From: Crocosphaera sp.
Lineage (GTDB): Bacteria; Cyanobacteriota; Cyanobacteriia; Cyanobacteriales; Microcystaceae
Reading direction: 5' to 3'
Length of the DNA: 32,000 nt
Assembly (NCBI RefSeq): GCF_030064895.1
Contig: NZ_JASJEB010000014.1
Location: 20,945-52,944 of the forward strand
A model generated the notes under the pieces. It did no database searches and was not told the DNA's origin. It was given only the letters and a program-made list of their open reading frames with translations. The position numbers and the translations under genes were made by a program. Of the stretch, positions 5,173 through 27,843 are shown one piece after another (the first letter of the stretch is position 1; every line of letters begins with the position of its first letter).

Positions 5173-5266
5173 AGTCATTTCATTTATCATTTAACATTTA
5201 TCATTCGTTTGGAAGTAGGTTTGAAACCAAAATGTTCAATGTTCAATGTTCAATGTTCAATGTTTG
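5173..5266. repeat. MITE-like dispersed repeat, copy A. Contains (ATGTTCA)x4 and ATGATAAATG-type subrepeats.
   Basis: Its reverse complement aligns almost base-for-base with 29518-29660 (copy B), apart from indels. Confidence 0.7.
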
Positions 5267-5595: not shown

Positions 5596-5793
5596 TGTGG
5601 GGAGTATGGGAAGTTTGGCAAGTTTGGGGAGTTTGGGGGGTGTGGGGAGTGTGGGGAGTATGGGAAGTTTGGGGAGTTTGGGGAGTTTGGAGAGTGTGGG
5701 GAGTGTGGGGAGTATGGGAAGTTTGGCAAGTTTGGGGAGTGTGGGGAGTATGGGAAGTTTGGCAAGTTTGGGGAGTGTGGGAAGGGTGGGGAG
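5596..5793. repeat. Tandem nonamer array, about 22 units, consensus (G/T)TGGGGAGT with GGGAAGT/GGCAAGT variants. G-rich on the plus strand.
   Basis: 9-nt periodicity read directly. All three plus-strand frames and one minus-strand frame stay open across it (ORF-track artefacts). Confidence 0.9.
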
Positions 5794-5851: not shown

Positions 5852-7975
5852 ATGAAGAAGATGAAATACAAAAATATAACTTTTCTGAAATTGTTTGTCT
5901 TATCTCTTAGTTTATTTTTATTATTAGATATTCATCTTTTTAGTTATTCTCAACAACTGTCTCCTGAATGTCAAAAGTTAACTAATGATATTGAGAATCG
6001 GGCAAGAAGTGATGCAAAAGCCGATAGATTTAATATACAAAATTTAGAAGCGATTCGTAGAAATATTGGAGACTTAAAAAATTTGTTTGGAGAGGAAAAT
6101 AAAGAACATGATTGTTATACTACTAATGAAATTTTGAACTTTTATGAATCAGCTTATGAAGCTCATAAATATCCTGGATTTGTACCTTTTATTGTCATTT
6201 TTTTACTAGGGGGTATTCTCTGGGAATTTATTAGACAAAATTTAATTGAAAGTGCCAGTAAAAAATTAGGAGAACTTTGGGAATCGATTTATCAAAAATT
6301 TGCTGGAAATTCTTTATTTTTAGGAATTGCTCTCAAACGTTATAACGAAAAACTGATTGAAGATTATCAATTATTACCAATTATTTTTACAGGAAATCAG
6401 TTAAAGCTACCGATGAAGGATATTTATGTTCCTTTAAAAATAGCTGATTCATCCGATAGAGAATTACTGAATATTAAAAGTATGATTCAATCTCATCGTC
6501 GTTTGATGATTACAGGAGAACCTGGATCAGGGAAAAGTTTATTATGTAAATATTTGAGTTTGAATTATGCTCAAGAAGGATTTGATTATTTAACAGATAA
6601 ACCTATTCCCATTATTTTAGAATTGTATCGAGTTAGTGATAGTGAATTAACAGTTGACAAATTACAAGATGCTATTATTGAAGCATTTGATAGTAGAGAC
6701 TTTCCTAAAGCAGATCATTTTGTTGAACAACAGTTAAACAATGGAAAATTGATGTTATTGTTAGATGGATTGGATGAAGTAGCAAGTCAAGATCGTTCTC
6801 ATGTTGTACAAATAATTCAAGATTTTTTAAAAAAATATGATCAGTGTCGAGTAATTCTTACTTGTCGCGTTGCCGTTTATCAATCACAGTTTAATCAATA
6901 TGTTGATCAAACTTTAACCTTAGTTGACTTTGATGATGAGCAAATTAGACGCTTTTTACGAGCATGGAAAGAATTATTTCCCCCTGATCATTCCAGGGAA
7001 CAATTAATTGCTTCTTTGCGAGAACGTCCCCAAATTTTACAAATGGCCAGAAACCCATTAATTTTAACATTAATTGCTTCCCTTTATACCGATCCAACTT
7101 TTGTATTACCCCATTCTCGTCTAGAATTTTACAATAAAGTAACGGATCGATTATTAGAGTTAAGAGATCAGGAACGTCCTTACTTAGAACAGCATAATAA
7201 ATATCGATTATCTGAGAAAAAAAGTATCTTACAAAGTTTAGCGTTATATGCTCAAAATCACCCTGATAAATTTGGAGGTAACCGCAAAAGTTTATCTTTT
7301 AAAACGGTTCGCGAAGAAGTGAAAAAAGAACTATCTAGCCTCAGTCGTACAGACAATGATATTATTCCTATTATTGATGAAATTGTAGAAAGAAGTGGAA
7401 TGTTACAGAAACTAGATGGAGGAGAAAATTATATTTTTTCCCATTTAACTTTACAAGAATATTTTACCGCTTTAGCTATGCGAGAAGAAGGAGAAACTCT
7501 CATAAGTCGCTTTCAAAGTGATCCCGATAGTTGGCGAGAAATTGTTAAATTATGGTGCGGTTTAGTTAATGATAGCACTGATGTAATTAAAGCCATTTAT
7601 GACAAAGATAAATTAACAGGATTTGAATGTTTAGCAGATGCTGCCAAAATCCAATCAGAGGTAGAAAAAGAGATTCTTGAAAATTTAAAGTCAAATTTAG
7701 AAAACGAAGCTTTTCATAAAGCATTTGCTGTAGTTGCAGCCGATGTTCGGCCAAGGGGTGAAGCCTTATTTTTGTTTCTAACTAACATTTTAAACCATGA
7801 AAATGAACCTTTATCAAAGCGAGAAGCAGCAGCAAAAATACTCTCAAAAACTAATTTACCAAAATCTGCAAGAGCATTAGGAAAACACTATAATAAACTT
7901 ACTTTTATTCGTAATTTATTAGTAGATATGGGAGATGTGGCACTACCGGAGTTAGAAGAATGGACAAACAAATAA
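5852..7975 (+). CDS. Membrane-anchored NACHT/STAND P-loop NTPase with C-terminal HEAT-like repeats
   Basis: - Walker A GEPGSGKS (6518-6541)
- Walker B LLLDGLDE (6755-6778)
- NACHT-type FSHLTLQEYFTA motif
- Two N-terminal hydrophobic helices (aa about 11-30 and 108-126) bracketing an ~80-aa loop with 2 Cys
- C-terminal alpha-repeat region. Confidence 0.85.
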   Translation: MKKMKYKNITFLKLFVLSLSLFLLLDIHLFSYSQQLSPECQKLTNDIENRARSDAKADRFNIQNLEAIRRNIGDLKNLFGEENKEHDCYTTNEILNFYESAYEAHKYPGFVPFIVIFLLGGILWEFIRQNLIESASKKLGELWESIYQKFAGNSLFLGIALKRYNEKLIEDYQLLPIIFTGNQLKLPMKDIYVPLKIADSSDRELLNIKSMIQSHRRLMITGEPGSGKSLLCKYLSLNYAQEGFDYLTDKPIPIILELYRVSDSELTVDKLQDAIIEAFDSRDFPKADHFVEQQLNNGKLMLLLDGLDEVASQDRSHVVQIIQDFLKKYDQCRVILTCRVAVYQSQFNQYVDQTLTLVDFDDEQIRRFLRAWKELFPPDHSREQLIASLRERPQILQMARNPLILTLIASLYTDPTFVLPHSRLEFYNKVTDRLLELRDQERPYLEQHNKYRLSEKKSILQSLALYAQNHPDKFGGNRKSLSFKTVREEVKKELSSLSRTDNDIIPIIDEIVERSGMLQKLDGGENYIFSHLTLQEYFTALAMREEGETLISRFQSDPDSWREIVKLWCGLVNDSTDVIKAIYDKDKLTGFECLADAAKIQSEVEKEILENLKSNLENEAFHKAFAVVAADVRPRGEALFLFLTNILNHENEPLSKREAAAKILSKTNLPKSARALGKHYNKLTFIRNLLVDMGDVALPELEEWTNK

Positions 7976-9678
7976 AATCAACAAGAAAATTAGCGATCGA
8001 TGATATTTACCGCATTGGAACCCCTGATGCTGCTGTTAAATTAGTTCCTTTTTTATGGGATGAAGATGAAGATTTTGCCATTTATGTTGCTTGGCATTTA
8101 GGTGTATTATTAAAAAAACCAGAAGTAGAAGAAAAATTATCTAAGTATCCATTAAAATCAGAACAAACTCTCACAGATGAATTAACTTATATTTGGCGAC
8201 CTTTTGAAAACAATTATGATTCTGCTTTATTTACAATTACCAGTCGTTTAGCTTATTTAATCAAAGTCTCATCAATTGAAAATATCCCTCAACCTATTTT
8301 ACCTGTTGACCCCAGAATTATTATTCCTATCTCTGCTGTTGAAACTATTAATTCGGTTAAACTGCCTACAAAAACTGATTCTAAAGTAGATAAACTTTTA
8401 GCACAATCAAAAATTACCCCTGAGTTAGAAAATACTTTTAAAGATAAGGTTGATACACTTTTAGGATATCAACAATTAGATAATAATTGGAAAATTAAAT
8501 TATCAAGTATCAGTCCTCGTTTACAACTTGATCTATTACATCGTCTTATTAATTCTCGTTCTTCTAGTCGTAGTGATTGGGGAAATCTTTATAAAAATAT
8601 TAAATACAAATATAGATTTCAAAGCGGATGGCATTATTATATAGTCTTAGGAGTTAGTTTTATTTTATGTCTAATAGCAGTAATTCAATTATTGACTAAT
8701 GTGAATGATAAGCTAAGTTGGTTATTTATATTTAGTTCTCCTTTTTTGTTTTTACTGGTTTTTTACTTTTGGCCTATTATCTGGCAAGGAATTGAAGAAA
8801 AATTAGAAGCACAACTCTTTCTTTCTTTTGGTTTGTTTGGAATACTAACATTTTATCAAAAATTAAAACTTCTATGGTTCAATAAATCTGTTTGGAATGG
8901 AATTACTCCTTTATATAATATAGTTATCAAGGTTCGGATGGGGGTATTGGCTTGGGTAGCATGGACAGTAGTAATAGAAGTTATGACGGAAGACTTGACA
9001 GTCGAATTAGGACTATTAGTAACACTGATAGTCTTTTTAACATTATTGGGAGTATGGGAGTCAGAAGGAACCATCATAATAGCATTGGCTCTAATGATAG
9101 TCTTTTTAACTCTAATGATATTCATAGTGTTGACAGGTGAAATGATGTTGCAAATATCAGATCCAGCAATAGCATTATTGAATGTGCTATCGGGGTCTTT
9201 AATAAGTGTTTTTCTAGTGCAGTGGGTCTTCCATCTAACTGAAAGAGCTGGAATAGATTTTTGGCTTGTAATAGTAGCAGTGGCTTGGGTAATACTGATG
9301 ACATTGATAGTGTTAGGGCCAATCATAGGGCCGGGGGCAAGGGTATTAGGTTGTGGAGCAGTAATAGTGATGGTGGTGTTAAGCGCAGGTTCTGGTTTAG
9401 GCGTTTGGCATCGAGCAAAGGATAAAATAGATTCGACTCGCTATCTGGCAATTTTTGCGTTTCCTTTCTTCTCTACTTTTCCCATTGTTTTCGGTTATTG
9501 TTCTTATGCTTTTTATGATTGGTTTGGGTTAACTTGGCAACAAATTACTATTATTTGGATGCTTATTTTAGGAGTTTGTACTGTTTTATGGCAATGGGGA
9601 CAAAAACTTGATTATGAAGCAAGAAACCCCTTTAAAGGTATTTTAGATACTGTTAAAAATGATAGTGATTTTTTCTAA
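7960..9678 (+). CDS. HEAT-repeat N-terminus plus polytopic membrane protein (about 10-11 TM helices). Partner, or split-off C-terminal part, of the NACHT protein.
   Basis: - ATG overlaps the upstream stop by 16 nt.
- N-terminus (RKLAIDDIYRIGTPDAAVKLVPFLWDEDEDF) looks like a PBS-lyase-type HEAT repeat.
- Hydrophobic helices span nt about 8632-9600.
- A 16-nt direct repeat TGATAGTCTTTTTAAC (9026-9041 and 9095-9110) marks a duplicated TM segment. Confidence 0.65.
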   Translation: MDKQIKSTRKLAIDDIYRIGTPDAAVKLVPFLWDEDEDFAIYVAWHLGVLLKKPEVEEKLSKYPLKSEQTLTDELTYIWRPFENNYDSALFTITSRLAYLIKVSSIENIPQPILPVDPRIIIPISAVETINSVKLPTKTDSKVDKLLAQSKITPELENTFKDKVDTLLGYQQLDNNWKIKLSSISPRLQLDLLHRLINSRSSSRSDWGNLYKNIKYKYRFQSGWHYYIVLGVSFILCLIAVIQLLTNVNDKLSWLFIFSSPFLFLLVFYFWPIIWQGIEEKLEAQLFLSFGLFGILTFYQKLKLLWFNKSVWNGITPLYNIVIKVRMGVLAWVAWTVVIEVMTEDLTVELGLLVTLIVFLTLLGVWESEGTIIIALALMIVFLTLMIFIVLTGEMMLQISDPAIALLNVLSGSLISVFLVQWVFHLTERAGIDFWLVIVAVAWVILMTLIVLGPIIGPGARVLGCGAVIVMVVLSAGSGLGVWHRAKDKIDSTRYLAIFAFPFFSTFPIVFGYCSYAFYDWFGLTWQQITIIWMLILGVCTVLWQWGQKLDYEARNPFKGILDTVKNDSDFF

Positions 9679-9709: not shown

Positions 9710-9776
9710 GGTGGGTTAAGACGCGAATAAATACTTATAATGTTTTCATCAAAATAAACCTTGCGCCTAACCCACC
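9710..9776. repeat. Long hairpin between convergent genes (GGTGGGTTA...TAACCCACC, 9-bp perfect stem plus GCG/CGC extension, ~36-nt loop). Possible bidirectional terminator or dispersed hairpin repeat.
   Basis: Inverted repeat read directly. It sits in the 117-bp gap between the 3' ends at 9678 (+) and 9796 (-). Confidence 0.3.
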
Positions 9777-14360: not shown

Positions 14361-14487
14361 TCGGGGTTACTCCTTAATTATTAAACTGAGTTCATCTTTA
14401 TCTTAAGATTTTTCGGTTTTAATGACCATGATATGGGGAGTCTGGGAAGTATGGGGGGTGATTGAAGAAGCAAGATTAGAACTAATA

Positions 14488-15025: not shown

Positions 15026-18000
15026 TTAATTGTTAATCATATTTTTAACGGTTTCCAGGAATTGTTGTTCAACGTAGGGTTTAGTAAAGTAGGCACTTGC
15101 TCCTAAATGGGTGGCTAACTGACGATGTTTTTCGCTGCTACGAGAGGTTAACATAGCAACGGGAATCTTCATCATTTGCGGATCACGACGACGCTTGCCT
15201 AAAAATTCAAACCCATTCATATTAGGCATTTCTACATCACAAATCACCAGATTTATCCCCGAAGTTTGTTGTAGTTGTTCTAAAGCTTCTCGGCCATCTT
15301 TAGCTTGTAGAACTCGATACCCTGATTTTTGTAAAGTTAAGGCCAAGGTTCGTCGTAAGGCCGCTGAGTCATCCACCACTAAAACCGTGGGATTTTGTGA
15401 GATTGTGATGGGGGTAGAACCTTGATTATCAGAACTTTCTACCCTAATACCAGCAGCTTTTCCTGAAGACTGATAAGAGTCTAAATGTTCCTCTAATAAG
15501 ATAGTGCCATTGACCACAGGAATTAAGGTCCCATCCCCTAAAATGGTGCAACCATAAGTATAAGCAGGGGCAGCGATCGCTTTTCCAAAAGGTTTAATCA
15601 CTAATTCTTGTTCCGTGAGCAAACGAGTCACTTCTAGGGCGTGTAAATGCTCTCCCCGTCGTAAAATGAGCAGGGGTAAACCCCAATGATCCGGGGTAGA
15701 GATTCCTTGAAGAGACTGAGAAACAAACCCATCAATAGAAGAACTGCGATACTCCAACAGATGTTGCATTGCATAAATAGGGATAATTTTTCCTTGCCAA
15801 GCCAAAAATCTTTGTTCTCCAGACACTTTAATCTGTTCAGGTTCGGGCATAATAATTTCTTCAATGCTATCAGAAGGCAAAGCAATAGCCGATCCTTGAT
15901 GATAGTTATCATAATGAATTAAACAGACTAATAATTTAGCAATGGTTAGGGTTAAGGGTAGACGGAGGGTAAAAGTGGTTCCTTGGCCTGCTAGAGAACT
16001 CACCGAAACCTTACCTTTTAAAGCTGTTAACTGTTCTCTAACCACATCTAAACCCACCCCACGGCCCGACAGTTCACTAACTTTATTAGCTGTAGAAAAT
16101 CCAGGTTCAAAAATAAGATTCTCTAGAGCTTCTTTTGTCATCAAAGCCACCTGTTCTGGGGTCACTAATCCTGCTTGAACAGCTTTTTTGGCAATTTTAT
16201 CCAAATCCAGTCCCCCACCGTCATCGTGCATTTCAATGATAGTTTGGTTGCCTTGGTGATAAGCAACGATTTCGATTTTTCCCTGTTCTGGTTTGCCCAA
16301 CTTGCGACGAATTTCTGGGGGTTCAATGCCATGATCAAAACCATTTCTGAGGAGATGTTGGAGGGGATCGTATAATTTTTCTAAGGCTGCTTTATCCACT
16401 AAAACAGAACTACCAGTTAACTCTAATTTAACGGGTTTATGATACTGATTAGATAAATCCCGTAAGACTCGAGGAAAGCGGTTTAAAACTTCCCCTAAAG
16501 GTAACATCCTCGCCCACATTAATTCATCTCTAAGTGAGTTAAGCATTTGTCTTTGTTCTTCTAAAGTTTGATTAGAAGAACGGGCAAAAAGAACAATATC
16601 ATCCACTGATTCTTCTAACTGCATCATTTCTTCTAATAAATTCTGCACAATAGAATAAACCGTGCCATAAGAATCCATTTCTAATGAGTCAAAATCAGTG
16701 GCTTCTGAAAGAGTATATAAGGAAGAAAAGTCCACAGTATTTTCTCCATTGCCAGAGTTTTCCAGACCTTTTTTCTTTCCATAACGTTCAGGTCTAACTA
16801 CCATTTGATCCGATAATTTTTTGAGGTTTTCTGTAATTTTTTGAAAATAAGAAAAGCGTTCAACTAAGTCTTTTACTTTGTTTTGTAATTGTTCATTTTG
16901 TAGGGATAAACTATTACGGTTAATTACCAATTCCCCCACTAAATTATTCATTTTTTCCAACCTGTTAAAATCAACCCTAACCGAAAGCAGACCCGCCTTT
17001 TTTTCTTTCGAGGATCTTTCTGTTTGAGATGAACGTCGTTGTCCTTTCGTCGCTTTAGAAGAACGAGTTGCACCACTGGAACGGGTGGGACGATTGGAAC
17101 GAGTAGTATCAGAAGAATGTCTAAAGGTTTCACGGGAGACGGGTTTTCCTGTAATTGATGGATTACTTTGTTCTTCAACGGTTGGTAAGGTCTCAAAAAT
17201 ATTTTCTACCGACTCAATAAAAGTATCGATATTTTCTTGAATTTTTGTCTCATTAACTTCAACTTCTAAGGATAAAGTTTCTTCTTTGGGGGTTTCTACC
17301 TTGCCAAATAAATTATCTAAAGAAGCAGCAAAAGGAACCTCCTCCACCGGTTCAGATAGCTCCCCAACAGGTTCTCCAAAGACATCATCCAAAGCAGGAA
17401 CCCCTTCCCAGTCCGGTTCTTCTTTTTCGGCGATCGTTGAACCAAAAATATCATCTAATGGAGGCGAATCACTAAACTCTAAGGACTTAACCGGAGTTTC
17501 TTGTTCAACCTCCACCCTATCTACAACAGCATCATCAGAGGATAATAATGACTGGGCCGCTTCCTCATCTTTCTCTGAAAAGAGATTATCCAAAGAAAAT
17601 ACAGAATTTTTGTTAACAGAAGGTTCTGAAGGTATTTCGACCACAGGAGCAGACATTGGCGTTTCCAGGATATTCCCTTGTGCCAAACTTAACAACGCCT
17701 CAGAAGGTTGACCCCCCGAAGTGCGATCGCCTTCCACTAAAACTAAATGTTGACTCTGTTTTAAGTCCCCTAAAGCCACCTGAGCAATAGATAACGCCTC
17801 TGAGGGTAACTGTTCGAGAGCCTGTACCATATTCTGAACAATCTTCCCAAACCCTGGTAGGCCAAGGATTTCAGAAAATCCACTGAAAACTTCCCCCTGA
17901 GTGCGTAAGGTTTGAGTTATTTGTTCATTGTCTCCAGAGGCCAAAGCTGTTTCAATTTCTTGTAAACCTTGAGCCACATCTACTTCAAACAGAGAAGAAA

Positions 18001-18460
18001 CAATATCAATTCCCAAATCTGCTGAAGATGGGAGATACTGTTCCCCTTGAGCCATACTATCCCCTAAAATAGCCTCAATGGCTTCAAATATAGGCAAAGC
18101 AGTGTCGATGGCCCCCTCTTCATCAAAACTCCCTGTGATGATTTGGTCTTCTAAGGGATCACGCAAGTGATCGAAACCCTCTAATAATAGGTTTTCTAGC
18201 TCATCATCGATTATCACTGTCTCATCATAGAGAGCCTTAAAAATGTCTTCGAGACGATGGGCGATGATTTTGATGGTATCCAGTTCAACACTGGCCGCCC
18301 CACCTTTAATAGAATGAGCCGCCCGCATAATTTCGTGAATGGTTGAGGTATCACGCTCTTCTTTGAGGGTAAGTAATCCAGTTTCAATAATGTAGAGAAG
18401 TTCGGGGGCTTCTTCAATGAAAAATTGATAGGCTTGATCGCGGATGTCAGGGTTCATCAT
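15026..18460 (-). CDS. Hybrid CheA-type histidine kinase (Hpt, long acidic/Ser-Arg-rich linker, dimerisation, HATPase, CheW-like, C-terminal REC); PixL/TaxAY-like
   Basis: - Hpt motif AAHSIKGGAASV
- HATPase motifs HLLRNGFDHGIE, DDGGGLD, GRGVGLDVV
- REC motifs VLVVDDSAALR...DVEMPNMNGFE...K. Confidence 0.9.
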   Translation of the reverse strand: MMNPDIRDQAYQFFIEEAPELLYIIETGLLTLKEERDTSTIHEIMRAAHSIKGGAASVELDTIKIIAHRLEDIFKALYDETVIIDDELENLLLEGFDHLRDPLEDQIITGSFDEEGAIDTALPIFEAIEAILGDSMAQGEQYLPSSADLGIDIVSSLFEVDVAQGLQEIETALASGDNEQITQTLRTQGEVFSGFSEILGLPGFGKIVQNMVQALEQLPSEALSIAQVALGDLKQSQHLVLVEGDRTSGGQPSEALLSLAQGNILETPMSAPVVEIPSEPSVNKNSVFSLDNLFSEKDEEAAQSLLSSDDAVVDRVEVEQETPVKSLEFSDSPPLDDIFGSTIAEKEEPDWEGVPALDDVFGEPVGELSEPVEEVPFAASLDNLFGKVETPKEETLSLEVEVNETKIQENIDTFIESVENIFETLPTVEEQSNPSITGKPVSRETFRHSSDTTRSNRPTRSSGATRSSKATKGQRRSSQTERSSKEKKAGLLSVRVDFNRLEKMNNLVGELVINRNSLSLQNEQLQNKVKDLVERFSYFQKITENLKKLSDQMVVRPERYGKKKGLENSGNGENTVDFSSLYTLSEATDFDSLEMDSYGTVYSIVQNLLEEMMQLEESVDDIVLFARSSNQTLEEQRQMLNSLRDELMWARMLPLGEVLNRFPRVLRDLSNQYHKPVKLELTGSSVLVDKAALEKLYDPLQHLLRNGFDHGIEPPEIRRKLGKPEQGKIEIVAYHQGNQTIIEMHDDGGGLDLDKIAKKAVQAGLVTPEQVALMTKEALENLIFEPGFSTANKVSELSGRGVGLDVVREQLTALKGKVSVSSLAGQGTTFTLRLPLTLTIAKLLVCLIHYDNYHQGSAIALPSDSIEEIIMPEPEQIKVSGEQRFLAWQGKIIPIYAMQHLLEYRSSSIDGFVSQSLQGISTPDHWGLPLLILRRGEHLHALEVTRLLTEQELVIKPFGKAIAAPAYTYGCTILGDGTLIPVVNGTILLEEHLDSYQSSGKAAGIRVESSDNQGSTPITISQNPTVLVVDDSAALRRTLALTLQKSGYRVLQAKDGREALEQLQQTSGINLVICDVEMPNMNGFEFLGKRRRDPQMMKIPVAMLTSRSSEKHRQLATHLGASAYFTKPYVEQQFLETVKNMINN

Positions 18461-18467
18461 GGTTTTT

Positions 18468-18588
18468 GGGAGACGGGGAGATGGGGTGACGGGGTGACTG
18501 GGAGATGGGGTGATGGGGTGACTGGGAGATGGGGTGACTGGGTAACGGGGTGACTGGGTGACTGGGAGATGGGGTGACGGGGGGAGCG
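18468..18588. repeat. Tandem 7-8-nt G-tract array (GGGGTGAC(T)/GGGAGAT units), G-rich on the plus strand
   Basis: Read directly. It lies in the spacer between the MCP stop (18685) and the cheA start (18460). Confidence 0.85.
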
Positions 18589-18610
18589 AAATATTAATAT
18601 TGTTTCTAGT

Positions 18611-18673
18611 CTTCCCACACTCCCCACACTTCCCACACTCCCCACACTTCCCACACTCCCCACACTCCCCACC
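18611..18673. repeat. Tandem nonamer array, 7 units of CT(T/C)CCCACA. This is the reverse complement of the 5596-5793 unit, so it is G-rich on the minus strand.
   Basis: Read directly. It has the same unit family as 5596-5793 and the short 14432-14460 patch. Confidence 0.85.
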
Positions 18674-18684
18674 CTTTCTATTTC

Positions 18685-21600
18685 CTATTCAACTTTAAAC
18701 CGTTCAACATTGGCTTGTAATTGTTGGGCCAGGAGTAGTATGTCTTGGAAAGATTTTGCTAAATCAAGGACAGAAACCGAAGTATTTTCGGCAATAGTAG
18801 AAACGTCTCCCATGACTTCATTCATAGACTTAGAGGTCAGAGATTGGTCTTTAGCAGCCTCGAAAATGGCAGTTACTAAGCCATCAATCTGTTGAGAAGT
18901 GACTGTTATCTGTTGCAGACTATTACGGGTTTGTTCAACTAATTCGGTTCCTCGCAATACTTGTTCAGTCCCCGTTTTCATAGTTTGGGTGACTTCTTTA
19001 GTTTCGCTTTGAATACTGTTAACTAAGGTTTCAATTTCTGCGGTAGCTTCTGCTGAACTGGTGGCTAAACCCCGTACTTCATCGGCAATGACGGCAAAGC
19101 CTCGTCCTTGTTCTCCGGCGCGGGCTGCTTCAATAGAAGCTTTGAGCGCGAGTAAATGGGTTTGTGCTGCGAAACGACTAATTAAATTAACTACCTTAGA
19201 AATCTTTTGGGACGATTCTCCTAAATGTTGAATTTTCTTAGTGCTTTCTGTCACGGTGTCTTGAAGAGAGATGATACCGTCCATGGTTTGATTAATGGCC
19301 TGTTCTCCAGCAACGACATTTTCGGAGGCTTTTTGAAAGGCTGTTAATGTTTGTTCCGCGTTTTCGGTGACAAAATTAATCGATTTACTCATGGCCGTTA
19401 AGCCATCGCCTGCTACTGTAATTTTTTCGAGTTGTTTGAGAGATTCTTCGGCTAAATTTTCGATTAAATGCTCATTATTGTTGGTGGTCTCAGAAAACTG
19501 TTGCGCAACAGTTGTAACTTGAGTGACTAAGGAACGAAGGTTTTCCACCGTTGCGTTATAAGAGTCAGCAATAGTACCAATTTCATCTTCAGTGACTTCA
19601 GCGCGAATGGTGAGATCCCCTCTACTAATGGGTTCTACTGCCATCAACAATTTTAAGGCTCTCTGTTGTAATTTTTCTTTGGCCATGCGTTGTTGTTCAG
19701 AAACAACGGTTTGCTCATGCAACAGTTTAGCCCGTTCTAAGGCGACCCCAACTTGTACGGCGACTTGGGTTAAAAAGTCAATTTCGGGTTGTTGCCAATG
19801 ACGAGGACTTTGACAATTATGAGCAATCAGTAATCCTAATAATTCTCCTCCGGCTACAATAGGAACAACTAAATTGGCCTGAATTTCTAAGCTTTGCAGT
19901 TGTTGCAGATCACAAGAGTCTAAACCAGCTTTATGAATATTAGTTAGGGCTTTAACCCGTCCTTGACGATATTTATCCACAAAAGATTTCGCAAAACAAG
20001 GATCAGGAATATTCTGCCCTAAGGTGGCCGGATAGGCTGGATTAACCGATTCCGCGATTACGGTTCCTTTCCAATTTTCATCAAAACTATAGACAATAAC
20101 TCGGTCCGTTTTCAGTGCATCACGACTACTTTGAACCACTAAATCAAAGAGATTTTCGGTAATTATTTCTGTGGAAATTTTTAAGGTAATTTCTTTAAGA
20201 ACACGGGCTAACCCTGATTCTAAAGCCTTCGTTTGGGCTAGAGTTATACGGTTGATAGTAACTTGTATCTGGCTGACAAATTGTTTGAGGAAATTAATTT
20301 CTGTTTCTTGCCATTGCTCGTTATGGGTGCAACGTTGAGCAAATAAACAACCATAAAGGGTTTTTTGATTATAGATAGGGATAATCAATTGTTCTTTGAC
20401 TTGCAACCTTTCTAAACTCTCTCGGTATCCAGAATTTTCGCTGATAGCGTCTAGTTGTTCGAGGGTCCACTCTTCTGTTGATAGGGTTGCTTGCAACTCT
20501 TGTAATAAACTTGTAGGAATCATCTCACTGTCATCCTCTTGTTCTAAAACAGAGGTAAAACCAGGACTAACTACTTCATACTTGACCTGGTCTTGATCAT
20601 CTTCAGCAAAATAATAGATAAAGAGACGATCCAACTTAACTAAGCTTTTTGCTCCCTCTAACCCTCGATAAAACCAACTTTCCAAAGCCAAAGGATCAAG
20701 GGTTTGAGTAGAAGAAAGTTCTGCTAAAAAGCGGAACATTTTCGTTTTTTCCTGTAACCCTTCTTGATGAGTGGCAATATTGTTGGCCATCTCATTAAAA
20801 TAGGTTCCTAACTCTCCCACTTCATCTTGAGAGAGACCCTCAACCCGAGCATGATAGTCACCACTGGCAAATCGTTGAGTCACTTTTTGTAAGCGTTTAA
20901 TGGGTTTGGTAATAGCTGAGGCAATAATTCCGGCAACTACGACCACAACCCCCAAAACCGCCACCGATAAACCCAGTTGTAACACTAAACTATCTTTCAG
21001 GATTCGATTTAATCCCAGTTCGCGATCACCGTAAACCAAAATAGCAACTTCATTCCCGTTATGGTTAGGCAGTGCTTTGGCTGCCAGAGTATAGTTATGA
21101 TTATTAACATATCCTCTTTCTCCAACGGTTTTGCCTTGAGCTTGTACTGCTTTTTTTAAGATAGATGTATTGGCAGGAAGGGCTGTGTTAAGGTTAGAAT
21201 TCCTCAGTTCGGTTTTTTCAAAGGCAGTAGCTAAGGAAAATTGTTTATTTTCAGGATTATAAAGATAGACAGCACTATAACCAATATCTTGAAAAGTCTG
21301 TACGTTTTTCTTAACAATATCCGAATTCCCGTTAACAATATCCCCAGAAATAAGAGTCCCGATTACAGTTTGTGTACCGGGTAGTTTAACAGGGGTAATG
21401 GTATAACGGATCAAGGCATCTTGGCCCCTCAGTCCGGCCGGTAGAGGTACTTTTTCTTGGATTAGTTCTTGTAAACTAACTAATTCACTGGTACGGATTT
21501 GTTTTTTTTGTGCCATGACCCGGGTAACTAACCCTTGAGGGTTAAATATTTCCCCCTGACGTGGACTATTAGCATTGGCAATAATACGTGAAGTTTTATC

Positions 21601-22080
21601 GACTAAAGTAACATATTCAAGACCATAAAGTTTTTGTTCATTTTTTAAAATAGATTCTAATTGAGTGCGAATTTCTGGAGATAAAGATTCTCCTTGATTA
21701 AAAATTTTTGTAGCTTCAATAATTGTAGGATGTTCTGACTTAGCGGTAGCACCTAAACCCATTTTGTCTAAATCGGTATTGTAATTGAGTTCACTAACAG
21801 CTAATTGAGATTTTGTTTGATAAAGTAAATGAGAGCGTAAACTACCAACTAAAGAGCTTGAACTTAACCCAATTAATCCCCCTAATGCAAGAAAAATTAG
21901 AGCAGTAATCATTTGAGTCTTGCGACTAATAGGCAAGTTATAAAATTGCTCAATCAGTGGCAATCCAGAAGAGCTTTTAGGGTTATATTTGACTACTTTT
22001 TTAGAAATAAAAGGCGAAGAAAGAGAGGTTTTTCCCCTTGTAGAAGAAGGTTTGGGAACTGGTTTAACAGGGTTTTGCAT
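18685..22080 (-). CDS. Methyl-accepting chemotaxis-type photoreceptor candidate (2 TM flanking a ~290-aa Cache-like periplasmic domain, HAMP, 2 GAF, MA signalling domain); PixJ/TaxD-like
   Basis: - MA hairpin core: [31 protein letters not shown]
- HAMP after TM2
- GAF2 carries DPCF (Cys codon 19996-19998) and a Cys-Asp in place of the usual Cys-His (19909-19914). Confidence 0.9.
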
Positions 22081-22152
22081 AGATAGTACTTAACAATTAA
22101 TATTAACAACTCAAATAGGAAACAGCTTAATCTTTTGACTGCAAAAAATGGA

Positions 22153-22782
22153 TTAATCTTCTACTGGTAAATTAATCAAAATTCCTCCCATCACATCTCC
22201 CACCTTAAAAATTTTGCTAGGATAACGTTGTTTATGGATAGGATGTTGATTATGACAGTCAATACAAGCAGCAGAAACAGCTTTATCAGGATAAAGAGCA
22301 GAGAAATATTTTTTCCCATCTTTAACCTGATATTCTTTATAAGGTAAGCCCGTATCTAATACTTCTCTCATTGCTTTTTTCTCAAAATTAGTGTTGGGAA
22401 TATTATTCTCATTGAGACTCCAATCGGAAATAGCCCCATAACTAAACGCACTATTTTCTGAGGCTAATTCTGAAGTCATGCGAAACATTTGTGCTGGTAG
22501 GGGCAAAGCTTTCTCCTGTTGCCAATGTTCAGAAGCCCTAACAACGTTTTCATCTTTGAGCCGTTGCACAACATGTTTACCGTAAATGATGCGTTCAGAC
22601 TTGATAATGCGGTGAATATAATCAGTTACCATATCCGCGGGGACTTTGGCTCCCAGTTGCCGGGCATCAAGGGTGGCACAAGAAACAACGACAAACCAAC
22701 TGGCCACCCCGAGTATGATGAGGGTGATCAACCGCAGAAGGAATTTTATTGCTCGTAACTTTTGAATTAATGTCTGTATCAT
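22153..22782 (-). CDS. Tll0287-like (DUF3365) c-type heme PAS-like protein, probably a lipoprotein or membrane-anchored and extracytoplasmic
   Basis: - CIDCH heme-c motif (22252-22266)
- N-terminal hydrophobic segment ending in a lipobox-like VVSC
- ALPLPAQMFR and YPSKIFKVGDVMGG regions typical of the DUF3365 family (recognised from memory). Confidence 0.65.
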   Translation of the reverse strand: MIQTLIQKLRAIKFLLRLITLIILGVASWFVVVSCATLDARQLGAKVPADMVTDYIHRIIKSERIIYGKHVVQRLKDENVVRASEHWQQEKALPLPAQMFRMTSELASENSAFSYGAISDWSLNENNIPNTNFEKKAMREVLDTGLPYKEYQVKDGKKYFSALYPDKAVSAACIDCHNQHPIHKQRYPSKIFKVGDVMGGILINLPVED

Positions 22783-22874
22783 GGTTCTGTAGGCAGTATG
22801 CGAGTGGATAGGGTGCTAAGTGTGAGTAGTTTGGGGAGAATTTAGAATTTCTTTATTCTCTATTTCTCATGTTG

Positions 22875-25800
22875 CTACTTAACTTTGAACTGTCGGACAC
22901 TTTCTTGTAAGGACTGAGCAATGGCTAAGAGTTCTCGGAATGAGTTGGAAACTTGGGCTGCTTCGCTGGAGGTTTTATCGGAGATGGCTGCCACTTGACT
23001 CATGGTTTGGGTCACCGTTTGACTGGTTTGGGACTGTTCAATGGCAGAACGGGTAATAGCTTCGACCAGTTCACTAATTTGAATACTCGCTACAGTGATC
23101 TGATTGAGACTTTTACGGGTTTCATCTACTAATTTTGTCCCGGTTACTACCTGTTCTGTCCCTGCTTCCATTGCTGCTACTACATCATTGGTTTCTGCTT
23201 GAATATCGGCAACTAGGGTTTCAATTTCGGCTGTCGCTTCAGCAGACTGACGGGCAAGCGATCGCACTTCATCGGCAACTACAGCAAAACCTCGTCCTTC
23301 TTCCCCTGCGTGTGCTGCCTCAATGGAAGCATTCAGGGCGAGTAGGTTGGTTTGATCGGCAAAACTACTAATTAAGTTGACCACTTTAGAAATTTTCTGG
23401 GAGGACTCTCCTAACCGTTTCACTTTCTTGGCGGTTTCGGCTACTGTCTGACGAATGGCCATAATTCCGTCTACTGTACGATTCATGGCTTCTTCTCCCT
23501 GTTCTACGGTTTCAGTGGCTTTTTGAACGGTGGCTTCGGCTAATTCTGCGTTGGCTGCAACCGCACTAATGGAGGCGTTCATGACTTGCAGTTTATCTAA
23601 GGTCGCAGAAATATCCTGTGCCTGTTCAAAGGCTTCCTGGGATAAGGTACGAATAGCTGAGTCGTTCTGTTCGGTTGTCTCAGAGAGTTGTCCGGTGGCG
23701 TTTTGTACCTGGTTAACGATTTTTCTCAGGTTTTCGATGGTGGCGTTATAGGAGTCGGCAATAGTACCAATTTCATCTTCTGTCACCTTAGCCCGAATGG
23801 TGAGATCCCCTTGAGAAACCGGATCTACTTCCATCAGCAATTCTAATGCCCGTCTTTGCAGTTGTTCTTTAGCTATTCTTTGTTCTTCCTCAGATTTTTT
23901 CTGTTCTTCGAGGAGATCAGCCCTTTCTAGGGCAAACCCGATGTGAGTAGCAACCTGCGAGAAGAGGCTAATTTCTGGACTATTCCAGTTTCTAGGGCCG
24001 GAACATTGGTGGGTAATGTATAAGCCCAATAATTTCCCTTTACGAATCACAGGTGCGACTAAATTAGCACGGACTTTAAAGGGTTCGAGTTCCTTAAGGT
24101 GACATTCGGTTAATCCGGCGTTATAAATGTCTGGAGTAGCTTGAATCCTACCATCGAGGTATTTATCGACAAATTTAGTGGCAAAACAAGGGTCCATAAT
24201 TTTCCCATCTAAAGCATGGGGATAACCCTCGGCCACATCTTCGGCCACAATGGTTCCTAACCATTTTTCGTCAAAGGTATACAAAAGAACTCGATCGCTT
24301 TTGAGAATACGACGCATCTGTTGAACCGCCACTTCCATAATTTCTTCTGTATTGATGGCTGTGGCGATGCTCACGGTGATACTCCGTAACTCTTGAGCGA
24401 GTCTGGCATCCAGTTTTTGTTGTTCCTCTAGGGTAACGCGGTCGATAGTAACGTTTAACTGTTCGGCTACACGCTGGATAAAGTTGATTTCTTGCTCTTG
24501 CCATTGATGGGGTTCTTGGCAATGATGGGCGATCAACAGGCCAAAAATATCCCCTTGCTTGATCACAGGAACCACTAAATTAGCTTGAATCTGCAACTTT
24601 TCCATCAGTTTATAGTGTTTGGGATGAAAACCGGCTTCATGGACATTATCCGTGGCAAGCACTCGCCCTTGACGGTATTTTTCCATAATTTCTCGGGGAA
24701 TACAGCGATCGCTAATTTCCAGTTCTTTGGCACTGGGATAACCGGAAGCAACGGACTCATGAGCAATAAAAGAACTACCATCGAGATTAAATTGATAAAT
24801 CACCACTCGATCAACTTTCAAAACCTCTCGTAACTGTTCCAAAGTGCGATCTAAAATTTCTTCTAATTCCTGACCATCGTTAATCACAGTACCGGCAATT
24901 TCTGCTAAGAGGTTGGCCTGTTGTGCGAAGAAGGTTTGTTTTTCCACTAAGCCATAAATTCGTTGGCTCATGGTGTTGACGTTTTTGGCTAAAATACCGA
25001 ATTCATCATCTCCGGAGGCTTCTATTTCCACAGTTAAGTCCCCTTCACCAATTTTCTTGACCGCACGAGTAACACGGCGTAGAGGACTGATAATTTGTTC
25101 AGAAAGGAGAACAGCGGCAGTTCCAGCCAACCCGGCAGTGATTAAGGTTCCTAAAAAGATGGCGGAGAGGAGTTTTCTCTGGGGACCAAAAACCTCGGCA
25201 TTATCTAGAGCAATCACTCCATTCCATCCTAAGTGGCCAAAACCATCGATTTTGGGAAGGGGTGCTAAAGCTAAAAATTGCTCCCTATCCATGGCTACTC
25301 CGGGTTTTTTTTGATTGGCAAGAGAAGGATAAATGGAGAATAAAGAGGGGGCTTGGACAGCTTTTAGTTCAGACTCCTGGCTTCTTTTATCTACTTGCCA
25401 GACACTATTGATGTAAGTGACTTTTACTCCTTGAGGGGCTAGAAATACCTCTTCATTGTCATTGACTAAATAAATATCTTTTTTGTGTTGATGGGATGCT
25501 TGATCAGTGCCTTTTTGAATCACTGTTTTTAGGTTTTCAACGGGCATCCGCGAACGAATGACCCCAATTATTTTCCCTGTTTGACTATCCTTGATGGGAG
25601 CGGAAAAATAAATATTAAACGTTTCCTCGGTGGTAGAAATGAGGGGTTGGCTAATGATAGCGGATTTAGTTTTAAGAACTTCTTGAAAGTAACTACGATC
25701 GCCATGATTTTTTAAAGGTGTGCCTTGAGATTGGGCAATGACATCCCCTTGTAAATCAAAGACGGCGATACTGTCATAAAATTGATAAATATCTGTATAA

Positions 25801-26318
25801 CGATCTAAAATTTTTTGTTTATCTTGAGCAGAAAGACTATCTCTTAATTCTGCTTGGGTAAAGATGTTGAGGGTGGCCAAAGCTTGAATATCAAGATAGC
25901 GATCGCTCATAAAGCGAGATACTTGATTACTCAATGCCTCAACATGGGTAATTTCTGATTCTTCAATTTGATGATAAAGAATGTCACTAGAAATTTTATA
26001 GGCTAAAGAACCGACCACAACAACTGGCATAATACCAATGACCGTGGCTGCTAGAATACTTTTGGAACGTAGGGTTAAACGTTGGCACCATTGCATGACA
26101 GGCCAATGGTGCCAAGGGGGTGAGATGGTTGGAAATGGTTCTCTAGGGGGTTCAGGGGAGGGTTCAACCTGGCTTTCAATAGTCAACAGGGAAGACTTGG
26201 GGGTTTCGGTTTTAGAGGTATCTGGGGATTGATTTTCTACTAAAGAAAATGCCTGATCAACAGAACCATTATAGTTATTATTATCTTCAGTATTGTGGTT
26301 AGGAGAAATCTGAGTCAT
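22875..26318 (-). CDS. Methyl-accepting chemotaxis-type photoreceptor (2 TM flanking a dCache-like periplasmic domain, HAMP, GAF, DXCF-type cyanobacteriochrome GAF, MA domain); PixJ1-like
   Basis: - GAF2 has DPCF (Cys codon 24186-24188) and the canonical AGLTECH Cys-His (Cys 24102-24104).
- MA core: [31 protein letters not shown]. Confidence 0.9.
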
Positions 26319-26756
26319 GGGATTAACTAAAAAATGAATATCAATAAACGGGTAGAATACTGCTAAGCTGAGTTAAGAGTTGGAGTTTTTCCCATGAGAT
26401 AATCAGGGTTTAAGACTCTTGATTTTGACCAGTTGTCTATAAATTTTCTTATATTGAACTAAGGTCGCTAAGCTGCTAAATCACTCCGTAGTGACTGACT
26501 GGGAGACGGAGAGAGAGTTTTACTAATTTGTCAATAGGTTGTTTTCACAAGTCAAAAGTCAAAATTTTTAACTTAAGTAATAAGATTCAAAAAATGATTC
26601 TCTTCTTATTTTTATTCTTCATAAATGAAGAGGCTTTTAGGCTAAGTTTTTAATAAAAGCTTTTTCCTTCGTAAGCCCTAAACGATGTGTAGAATTTATA
26701 AAATAAGTGCTATATACAATAGAAGAGGATGGATATTTAACTTGTCGGTTCAATCA

Positions 26757-27314
26757 TTAAGAGGGTTGGGGCATAGCTGCCAGAATTGCTTCTGGTTCGA
26801 GTACCACCCACATTTCTTGACCTTCTGGTAACCAATAACCTCGCAGAAAAGGGGCTAAACTGGAGCTAATAGCTGAGTCGAAAGAGGATTGAATTTCATT
26901 GGGGTTACACCATTCAATATCATCAACGCCAGTAACCACGGCTCCTAAATGCTGACGCTGAGCTTTAGGCACTCTTTGAGCGGGTGTTCCTGCATGGAGG
27001 ATAATACTACGATAAATAGGGGTTACTTGTGGTTGTTGGTGCCAAGGGGTTAATCCCAGTAACGCCCCTAAATCGATTATCCAGAGAATTTCTCCTCGCC
27101 AGTTATAGACTCCCATAACCCAAGAGGGCATTTCGGGGATGGGAACGATTTGACCCAGGGGAATGGTGATCACTTCGGTGAGTTGGGTGACGGGCAACAG
27201 TAAAGTTGTGTCTGGAACTAAGCGAAATCGCAAAAATTGCTCTAGTTGCTCGGCGTTTTGATGGCTTAGGGTGGTTGTTGAAACGTTGGTTTGAGAAAAT
27301 TGAGGTTGAACCAC
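26757..27314 (-). CDS. CheW-like coupling protein (PixI-like)
   Basis: CheW-domain pattern: FLRFRL...LLLPVTQLTEVI...IPEMPSWVMGVYNWRGEILWIIDL. Confidence 0.85.
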   Translation of the reverse strand: MVQPQFSQTNVSTTTLSHQNAEQLEQFLRFRLVPDTTLLLPVTQLTEVITIPLGQIVPIPEMPSWVMGVYNWRGEILWIIDLGALLGLTPWHQQPQVTPIYRSIILHAGTPAQRVPKAQRQHLGAVVTGVDDIEWCNPNEIQSSFDSAISSSLAPFLRGYWLPEGQEMWVVLEPEAILAAMPQPS

Positions 27315-27335
27315 AATGGCTAACTCCTGATAACT

Positions 27336-27698
27336 TTAGGGGATGAGTTCTTGAATGGTGTTCAAAAATGTATCTTGATCTATGGGTTTGGGAATATAAG
27401 CGTCGGCCCCTTGCCGTTTACCCCAAAATTTGTCCACGTCTGTGTCTTTTGTGGAACACATAATGATGGGAATTTTACTGGTACGTTCTTCGGCTTTGAT
27501 CTCCCGACAAATCTCAAAGCCACTCAGTCCGGGTAAAATCACATCGAGAACTATCAAATCAGGGAGTTCCCCATTCAATTTTTCTAGTCCTTCTTCGCCA
27601 CTGGTGGCGATTTGGGGGATAATTCCTGCTAGTTTTAAATATCCGCTAATGATTGCTCTTTCTGTCACAGAATCGTCGATAACAAGGGCAGTTCCCAT
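27336..27698 (-). CDS. Single-domain CheY-like response regulator (PixH-like)
   Basis: REC motifs: ALVIDDS, DLIVLDVILPGLSGFE, PIIMCSTK, YIPKP. 120 aa. Confidence 0.9.
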   Translation of the reverse strand: MGTALVIDDSVTERAIISGYLKLAGIIPQIATSGEEGLEKLNGELPDLIVLDVILPGLSGFEICREIKAEERTSKIPIIMCSTKDTDVDKFWGKRQGADAYIPKPIDQDTFLNTIQELIP

Positions 27699-27757
27699 GA
27701 TTATTTTTACCTCGTTTAATGATTGATTAATGTGTTTGATCAGAATTCCCTAGTCTT

Positions 27758-27789
27758 AGACTTCCCTTAAACTTAAGGAAAATAACATT
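27758..27789 (-). promoter_or_regulatory. Bipartite conserved motif AGACTTCCCTTAA-N8-AAAATAACATT (plus-strand reading), upstream of the CheY-like gene
   Basis: Matches 29091-29122 at 23 of 24 fixed positions with identical 8-nt spacing. Confidence 0.35.
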
Positions 27790-27843
27790 GTTAACCCATA
27801 AAATTCCGAAAATTGACAATTACAAAAAAATTGGTACGAATGC

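Follow-up and report, generated by a model that had tools for sequence, protein, structure and literature searches.

The 32,000-nucleotide stretch of Crocosphaera sp. DNA analysed here (contig NZ_JASJEB010000014.1; the whole stretch is referred to as the window) carries two adjacent genes, gene 1 and gene 2, which almost certainly encode the two halves of a single membrane-embedded NACHT/STAND (signal transduction ATPases with numerous domains) ATPase that resembles NLR (nucleotide-binding domain plus leucine-rich repeats) proteins and is divided into two polypeptides. The original prediction, which was made by a model from the sequence alone, had described two open reading frames (ORFs) of 707 and 572 amino acids (aa) on the + strand overlapping by 16 nt, and this is borne out by the ORF calls and the sequence. 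It had also interpreted them as an NTPase with a separate effector partner, and this interpretation fails, gene 2 being the C-terminal half of NACHT proteins that are fused in 111 of 189 proteins and at 20 of 40 loci, as specified below. Both products are identical to NCBI Crocosphaera sp. entries: that of gene 1 to WP_300503988.1, where it is annotated from Met4 (704 aa), and that of gene 2 to WP_300503990.1, which is labelled 'hypothetical protein'.

Because fused NACHT proteins are in the majority and gene 2 follows their C-terminal half collinearly, the gene pair is read as a single protein cut in two. Gene 2 aligns with residues 617-953 of homologue P0020, 708-1023 of P0036, 676-1194 of P0021 and 673-1215 of P0040, with E values from 1e-32 to 4e-65, and the same four proteins also align gene 1 along their N-terminal ~700 residues. 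An exhaustive phmmer search with gene 2 returned 423 cluster representatives, mostly of 1,000-1,290 aa, in which the match starts near residue 700. Among the 189 collected proteins with a gene 2 match, the 111 counted as fused have this match after residue 500; the 20 unambiguously fused loci come from the 40 family loci examined on reference-genome and metagenome contigs. These loci were collected by alignment with gene 1, gene 2 alignments being without a sufficiently conserved stretch, and since the gene 1 alignment was used the set is biased towards NACHT conservation.

A true two-component STAND system, in which gene 1 would be a complete NTPase sensor and gene 2 a separate membrane effector recruited and activated by it, is largely refuted by the fused homologues, and we consider it very improbable. 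It would agree with the existence of two ORFs, with the own start codon and Shine-Dalgarno (SD)-like site of gene 2, with the conservation of the pair in Crocosphaera and with the recurrence of split forms in other lineages. However, in addition to the collinearity and the majority of fused forms described above, the cut is located inside a continuous repeat array and not at a domain boundary, and no gene 2 homologue apart from a NACHT gene was seen in the 40 loci examined. The Crocosphaera pair is, therefore, not a new two-protein system but an uncharacterised split variant of an already catalogued class. In most other cyanobacteria the protein is encoded unsplit, as one chain of ~1,200 residues. 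The unsplit form starts with a transmembrane (TM) hairpin that encloses a small extracytoplasmic loop of helical structure. The NACHT NTPase with its helical and winged-helix domains comes next, in the cytoplasm, then the HEAT-like array and the helical domain specific to the family, and a polytopic TM region ends the chain. In this last region a block of hypervariable helices is flanked by two conserved helix pairs, and the second pair leads into a cytoplasmic tail. The family is mostly cyanobacterial and is also found, patchily, in Actinomycetes, Acidobacteriota, Chloroflexota and in single metagenome-assembled genomes (MAGs) of Gammaproteobacteria and Bacteroidota; no gene 2 homologue was found in the phage collection. 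Within Crocosphaera the gene 1 orthologues are 85-90% identical.

The junction between the two genes

In the window the two genes overlap by ATGGACAAACAAATAA (16 nt). The design of the junction, GGAG followed after 8 nt by ATG, with the stop codon of gene 1 located 13 nt further on, is common to three Crocosphaera assemblies, including the complete chromosome of C. watsonii WH8501, and one of the three has a 9-nt in-frame deletion right 3' of the junction. Since no slippery heptamer is conserved and the ATG is conserved together with its SD-like GGAG, separate initiation is the simplest reading, and gene 2 is probably translated separately through coupling to gene 1. Alternatively, programmed -1 frameshifting of ribosomes within the overlap could yield a full-length fused protein. 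This would be consistent with gene 2 being in the -1 frame of gene 1 and with the A-rich overlap (ACAAACAAATAA), but a heptamer of the canonical form X XXY YYZ is lacking, the candidate sequence A AAC AAA reads A AAC CAA in the other two genomes, and the conserved ATG with GGAG 8 nt upstream offers a simpler route. A programmed frameshift was rejected on these grounds, no slippery heptamer being conserved in the three genomes, and we regard it as hardly credible.

It is also improbable, if somewhat less so, that the pair is a decaying pseudogene, in which a frameshift inactivated a once-fused gene and both ORFs are its remnants. The reading frames are indeed one nucleotide apart at the junction, as a single indel would leave them, frameshift-like overlaps are present at three other loci (L038-L040), and gene 1 is fragmented in two strains of C. 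watsonii: its orthologue is a 407-aa piece in WH0003 and is broken into 81 and 588 aa in WH0402, with gene 2 staying at 552 aa. This fragmentation may be strain-level decay or an assembly effect, and the pair is found in many C. watsonii strains. Against decay stand the single junction shared by three lineages at synonymous distances (dS) of 0.18-0.32, the GGAG and ATG kept at the restart, the intact catalytic motifs, and two intact ORFs in which the ratio of nonsynonymous to synonymous substitutions (dN/dS) is well below 1 (0.23-0.27 for gene 1 and 0.45-0.59 for gene 2 in the three Crocosphaera genomes) and in which every indel, many of them in gene 2, is in frame. Judged by these substitution patterns, both ORFs are under purifying selection, and the split is stable and maintained.

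Split forms are also present elsewhere in the family. A marine metagenome contig (locus L086, 4001-7205) encodes a 740-aa NACHT gene and a 329-aa gene with an 8-nt overlap and the cut at the Crocosphaera position; this split is either independent or shared by descent with Crocosphaera. At loci L003, L004, L006 and L019 the cut is situated ~60 residues later, giving pieces of ~760-780 aa and ~430-540 aa, and cuts of this later kind are present on a Nostoc chromosome, on a Nostoc plasmid and in a Crocosphaera paralogue. The paralogous pair (L003, 6001-10387; 759 and 430 aa) has an unusual 815-nt gap between its halves; its accession series is adjacent to that of the window pair, so that both probably belong to one Crocosphaera MAG. 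In a crude neighbour-joining tree of the NACHT region the split forms fall in one sector with a fused member among them, and the direction and number of fusion and fission events are not resolvable.

Architecture of the rejoined protein

The features of the locus are collected in Table 1. Gene 1 begins with two hydrophobic helices (aa ~9-30 and ~106-128, hydropathy), which substantiates the two N-terminal TM helices and the two-cysteine loop that had been predicted, the loop being ~75 aa long and bearing Cys40 and Cys88. The family consensus retains neither cysteine. A topology with the N-terminus inside and the loop outside would fit the K-rich N-terminus and the basic stretch that follows the second helix. 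In the model of the fused homologue P0021 the counterpart of the loop is helical (predicted local distance difference test, pLDDT, ~88). BLAST matches to the hairpin module (aa 1-140) are confined to close relatives.

The NACHT module is complete, as had been predicted: the Pfam NACHT profile PF05729 is matched over positions 1-164 of 167 with an E value of 3.9e-14 and 53.3 bits against a cutoff of 26.7, and the consensus motifs, i.e., Walker A GxxGxGK[ST], Walker B hhhhDGxDE and the sensor-1 Arg, are intact. The Walker B motif is located where the original prediction placed it, and the Walker A motif, which had been assigned to 6518-6541, begins one codon earlier. Residues G222, G225, G227, K228, D305, G306, D308, E309, T337 and R339 are invariant across 37 homologues, as are F529, H531, Q535 and E536 of the winged-helix motif FSHLTLQEYFTA. 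By comparison with NLR structures, His531 would occupy the position of the ADP-contacting His of NLRs. The fold of P0021 matches NOD2, NLRC4 and NLRP3 (Foldseek E values of 1e-11 to 1e-10, probability 1.0). The STAND/NLR architecture, consisting of a nucleotide-binding oligomerization domain (NOD), helical and winged-helix domains, the conserved His and C-terminal repeats, is thus present in the family, with the fold judged on P0021. With Walker A, Walker B, sensor 1 and the winged-helix His all invariant and with an NLR-like fold, the NTPase is predicted to be active.

The HEAT-like repeats of the original prediction are supported by the family profile, which matches the alphaRep HEAT-like proteins over the array region with an E value of 3e-17, and by PF13646 (HEAT_2), which is recorded on many homologues; Pfam HEAT repeats, in contrast, are not detected in the gene 1 or gene 2 product taken singly. 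The virtually rejoined junction peptide matches HEAT_2 with an E value of 1.7e-4 and 22.3 bits, which is under the 27.7-bit cutoff. In the AlphaFold2 model of P0021 (pLDDT 82, predicted TM-score 0.72) a continuous helical array at aa 579-735, with pLDDT of 92-97, spans the equivalent of the Crocosphaera cut, and aa 1-61 of gene 2 are modelled as four helices forming two HEAT-like helix pairs (pLDDT >90). The models thus place the Crocosphaera cut within a continuous HEAT-like array and not at a domain boundary, and because the array of fused homologues is continuous, the two HEAT arrays that had been predicted, one in each protein, are a single array divided by the gene boundary.

Gene 2 has no match to any Pfam, NCBIfam or PADLOC family, and no match of its model in the PDB (Foldseek) is better than an E value of 0.8. 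Its first 215 residues, which include the family-specific helical domain, are predicted with pLDDT of ~87-98, and W79, P81, F82, D117, R119, P123, D206 and W207 are invariant or nearly so in the family. The C-terminal helices, predicted earlier as ~10-11, number ~10 by hydropathy (nt 8629-9621). The distribution of Lys and Arg (positive-inside rule) suggests that the N-terminal domain and the tail are cytoplasmic, with ten helices between them. The first TM pair, the last two TM helices and the ARNPxKGIL tail are conserved and confidently modelled; the helices between them have pLDDT of 35-60. The C-terminal module is 77-97% identical among Crocosphaera, and the consensus ARNPLxGxL of its tail is family-wide. 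Between residues ~227 and ~476, in contrast, sliding identity among Crocosphaera is at most 40%, versus 80-97% in the flanks, and in genomes where gene 1 is 85-90% identical this stretch differs in length by roughly 100 aa and varies in the number of helices. The proportion of synonymous differences (pS) is near saturation inside the variable block only (0.68-0.73 versus 0.11-0.29 in the flanks). This pattern suggests cassette-like replacement (or recombination) and diversification, or else very weak constraint. An internally duplicated helix had been predicted here, and a 23-nt direct repeat with 69-nt spacing (9026-9048 and 9095-9117, 87% identical), which encodes LIVFLTL and MIVFLTL, does underlie it, but this possible one-helix duplication is short and could be due to chance. 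A 156-aa antisense ORF (8856-9326, - strand) is located within the TM-coding part of gene 2 and is probably a by-product of T-rich codons.

Table 1. Features of the split NACHT locus (positions in the window)
Feature	Positions	Strand	Details
Gene 1	5852..7975	+	ORF, 707 aa; predicted N-terminal half of the split NACHT protein
N-terminal TM hairpin	5876..6235	+	TM1 5876-5941, loop 5942-6166, TM2 6167-6235; hydropathy
NACHT P-loop NTPase core	6497..6970	+	aa 216-373; Pfam NACHT (PF05729)
Walker A GEPGSGKS	6515-6538	+	sequence
Walker B LLLDGLDE	6755-6778	+	sequence
Sensor-1 LTCR	6857-6868	+	sequence
Winged-helix motif FSHLTLQEYFTA	7436..7471	+	invariant His531
HEAT-like helical array	7664..8145	+	gene 1 aa ~605-707 and gene 2 aa 1-~62
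Split junction	7948..7975	+	SD-like GGAG 7948-7951, gene 2 ATG 7960, gene 1 TAA 7973-7975; gene 2 in -1 frame
Gene 2	7960..9678	+	ORF, 572 aa; predicted C-terminal half of the split NACHT protein
Family-specific cytoplasmic all-helical domain	8185..8604	+	gene 2 aa ~76-215; motifs WxPF, DPRIIIP, DW; pLDDT 87-98
Conserved first TM pair and interfacial segment WQGIEEKLEA...	8629..8880	+	aa 224-248, 254-275; pLDDT ~76-86, family consensus
Variable TM block, ~6 helices here	8887..9408	+	gene 2 aa ~310-483; part of hypervariable stretch aa ~227-476
Conserved C-terminal module	9409..9678	+	basic loop HRAKDKID, last two TM helices (aa 492-522, 526-554), tail ARNPFKGILD; pLDDT 85-92
Inverted repeat	9710..9776	.	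between convergent gene 2 and DUF6492 gene; ~10-bp GC-rich arms, ~45-nt loop

Possible function and genomic context

We favour, by a modest margin of belief, the view that the split membrane NACHT protein acts as a membrane-proximal sensor of conflict or stress, with a role in conflict or defence and an output at the membrane. Aided by translational coupling and by the membrane anchor that each of them has, the two halves would re-associate through the divided HEAT-like array and so rebuild the full protein. As in other STAND proteins, the resting state would be ADP-bound and auto-inhibited. A signal in or at the membrane would be perceived by the C-terminal part composed of the HEAT-like array, the helical domain and the variable TM region, and would allow the NACHT modules to exchange nucleotide and to oligomerise. 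Oligomerisation would in turn cluster the TM segments, namely the N-terminal hairpins and possibly the C-terminal bundles. In a setting of conflict or phage defence, the output at the membrane would most plausibly be its permeabilisation or an arrest of growth.

Several observations hint at a role in conflict: the patchy distribution over phyla, the split paralogue, the fragmentation of gene 1 in some strains and the plasmid copies located beside BREX-1 or beside NERD and patatin genes. Three cyanobacterial megaplasmids carry family members. On plasmid pNsp_c of Nostoc sp. ATCC 53789 (locus L088, 5585-17512) a split member of 771 and 539 aa adjoins a BREX-1 system (BrxA, BrxL, PglZ, PglX), which is the clearest defence-island setting seen for the family, and an Acaryochloris plasmid copy is near a NERD nuclease and a patatin-like phospholipase. 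The hypervariable central TM block between conserved flanks would be the kind of variability expected of a sensor. A more specific version, which we hold to be rather unlikely and put forward tentatively, is that the protein is an NLR-like receptor in which a TM-helix cassette is the specificity part, i.e., an intramembrane sensor under diversifying selection for membrane-inserted factors of phages or competitors, tolerant of expression as two polypeptides, which would reassemble by way of a divided HEAT-like solenoid. Such tolerance would explain the repeated splits in the family at two or more positions.

A number of points weigh against a sensor role in conflict or defence. Either end may be the effector and either the sensor, the evidence for the fold comes from the fused homologue P0021 and not from the window proteins, and the hypervariability of the TM block may merely mean weak constraint on hydrophobic spacer helices. 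The literature yielded no expression, interaction or phenotype data for any family member. With PADLOC models, gene 1 gives only partial matches to PDC-S73 (aa 209-246) and mad8, and gene 2 none; among the NCBIfam antiphage models, gene 1 reaches 57 bits against a cutoff of 1000 with EruA and 31.7 against 790 with DS8, these being partial matches at the level of the P-loop or NACHT module. There is no conserved gene partner: among 145 neighbour ORFs at 25 family loci, no family occurs in more than four members, and few defence-model matches were found. The chromosomal copies are mostly situated amid housekeeping genes, and the synteny of the left flank (LarE-like gene, DAGK/YegS, CP12) with C. 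watsonii WH8501 fits vertical inheritance within Crocosphaera.

The main rival to a defence role is that the protein is a STAND switch, tethered to the membrane and inherited mainly vertically, that serves cyanobacteria in signalling (envelope, thylakoid or membrane stress) or in assembly, which we consider unlikely on balance but a serious candidate. Besides the context in the window and at most other chromosomal loci and the syntenic left flank, it would be consistent with the lack of membership in any defence model and with the wide occurrence of the family in cyanobacteria. On the other hand, it agrees poorly with the scatter over Actinomycetes, Acidobacteriota, Chloroflexota and others, with paralogues that probably coexist in one genome, with the fragmented gene 1 of some strains, with the hypervariable TM block, with the plasmid copies described above, and with the antiphage activity of tested bacterial NACHT proteins (Kibby et al., 10.1101/2022.07.19.500537).

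The locus had also been taken for accessory or acquired DNA, for which its surroundings are a weak sign, the left flank being syntenic with WH8501, the tandem array on the left being no boundary and the neighbours being housekeeping genes. The locus is indeed AT-rich (GC 31-32.5% and third-position GC, GC3, 18-22%, versus a window GC of 37.8%) and free of HIP1 (highly iterated palindrome 1) sites, as had been predicted, but its low GC3 is common to the neighbouring histidine kinase and DUF6492 genes, and the absence of HIP1 is not significant because only ~1.4 sites are expected in 3.8 kb (12 sites in the window, none in the locus; P(0) = 0.24). The tandem array and the hairpin that were said to bound the locus both exist. 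However, the array (5596-5793), which is made of ~22 copies of the G-rich nonamer TGGGGAGTT with higher-order periods of 36 and 54 and occupies the divergent intergenic region of CP12 and gene 1, was rejected as an island border. It is a dispersed, copy-variable microsatellite that recurs in the window at 14435-14454 and 18624-18670, and at the corresponding spot there are five copies in locus L001 (286-334) and none in C. watsonii WH8501. The inverted repeat downstream of gene 2 was likewise rejected as a border of acquired DNA; its minimum free energy is -21.6 kcal/mol with a folding z of -2.75, it has no T-run, the terminator scan makes no call for it, and it is possibly a transcript-end structure. 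Synteny stops right after gene 2, where WH8501 (L002, 11942-17708) has EI24-like, zeta-toxin, FRP, HicAB and PIN genes and the window has DUF6492 and rlmN.

The remaining genes of the window are housekeeping genes and a Pix/Tax-like chemotaxis cluster (15026-29076, - strand), which encodes a CheA-type hybrid kinase (1144 aa), two methyl-accepting chemotaxis proteins of ~1,140 aa (HAMP, GAF; one also dCache), a Tll0287-like protein and a PatA-type response regulator with DUF4388. A perfect heptamer repeat, AATGTTC x 4.9 (5231-5264), is located just 3' of the DAGK/YegS-like gene, beside the 3' end of CP12.

Relation to known systems and significance

With the animal NLRs NOD2, NLRC4 and NLRP3 the family shares the NACHT/helical/winged-helix fold (as judged on P0021), the Walker A and B motifs, the winged-helix His and repeats located C-terminally to the NOD. 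It differs from them in having an identity of 12-15%, HEAT-like instead of leucine-rich repeats, no CARD or PYD, and membrane integration at both ends. A further likeness, by analogy only, is to the TM effectors of CBASS and Pycsar, in which small TM modules compromise the membrane once oligomerised. Those effectors are switched on by nucleotide second messengers, and to our knowledge have no detectable homology with the window protein; in contrast to them, the TM modules of the window protein belong to the NTPase chain itself.

The closest known counterparts are bacterial NACHT (bNACHT) proteins of the 'TM regions' class, which the Supplementary Discussion of Kibby et al. (bioRxiv 10.1101/2022.07.19.500537) had listed before. 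According to that text the class is abundant in cyanobacteria, where it has paralogues, and is predicted to detect intramembrane or periplasmic signals. Like that class, the window pair combines a NACHT NTPase with repeats and multiple TM segments located C-terminally to it, ~10 helices being found in gene 2 and 4-9 being predicted at the C-termini of fused homologues. Features that set the family apart from that class are the TM hairpin at the N-terminus with its extracytoplasmic loop, the family-specific helical domain, the hypervariable TM block flanked by conserved helices and, in Crocosphaera, the split into two genes. Bacterial NACHT proteins that were tested are antiphage, and no member of the TM class is among the tested examples cited in the text of Kibby et al. 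(10.1101/2022.07.19.500537). Clade 5 of the same work lists a Crocosphaera chwakensis NACHT protein with its module at aa 175-605, a matching position; it is a candidate orthologue.

The tripartite effector-NTPase-sensor logic of the family resembles that of Avs and other defence STANDs, among whose N-terminal effector types TM segments are listed in a survey (Nature 2026, PMC13581612). Unlike Avs, the window NTPase belongs to the NACHT clade and matches no PADLOC Avs model, and unlike the TPR-like soluble sensor of Avs, which binds phage proteins, the C-terminal part of the window protein is HEAT-like and transmembrane. A STAND/NACHT NTPase that is anchored in the membrane and combines HEAT-like repeats with a polytopic TM region is what the original prediction had proposed, and this much of it is borne out, no family beyond NACHT being matched in Pfam, NCBIfam and PADLOC. 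Its claim that the system is undescribed stands for the particular family and its split form, of which no description was found in the literature looked through (including searches by accession and for NACHT with Crocosphaera, which returned nothing on these proteins), but not for the TM-type bNACHT class as such, which Kibby et al. had already listed.

The 'hypothetical' polytopic protein beside the NACHT gene is thus a detached C-terminal half, and a tempting mis-annotation is corrected. Because of such splits, counts of systems composed of a NACHT protein and a partner in cyanobacteria would be inflated. The family, a large group of bacterial NLR relatives integral to the membrane at both ends, is unstudied, and it is present in Crocosphaera, an ecologically important marine nitrogen fixer for which few phage-defence determinants are known. 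The naturally split forms offer a ready-made complementation system for studying the control of the NTPase half by the sensor half. If the variable TM block is the sensor, recognition of the NLR type would extend to intramembrane signals.

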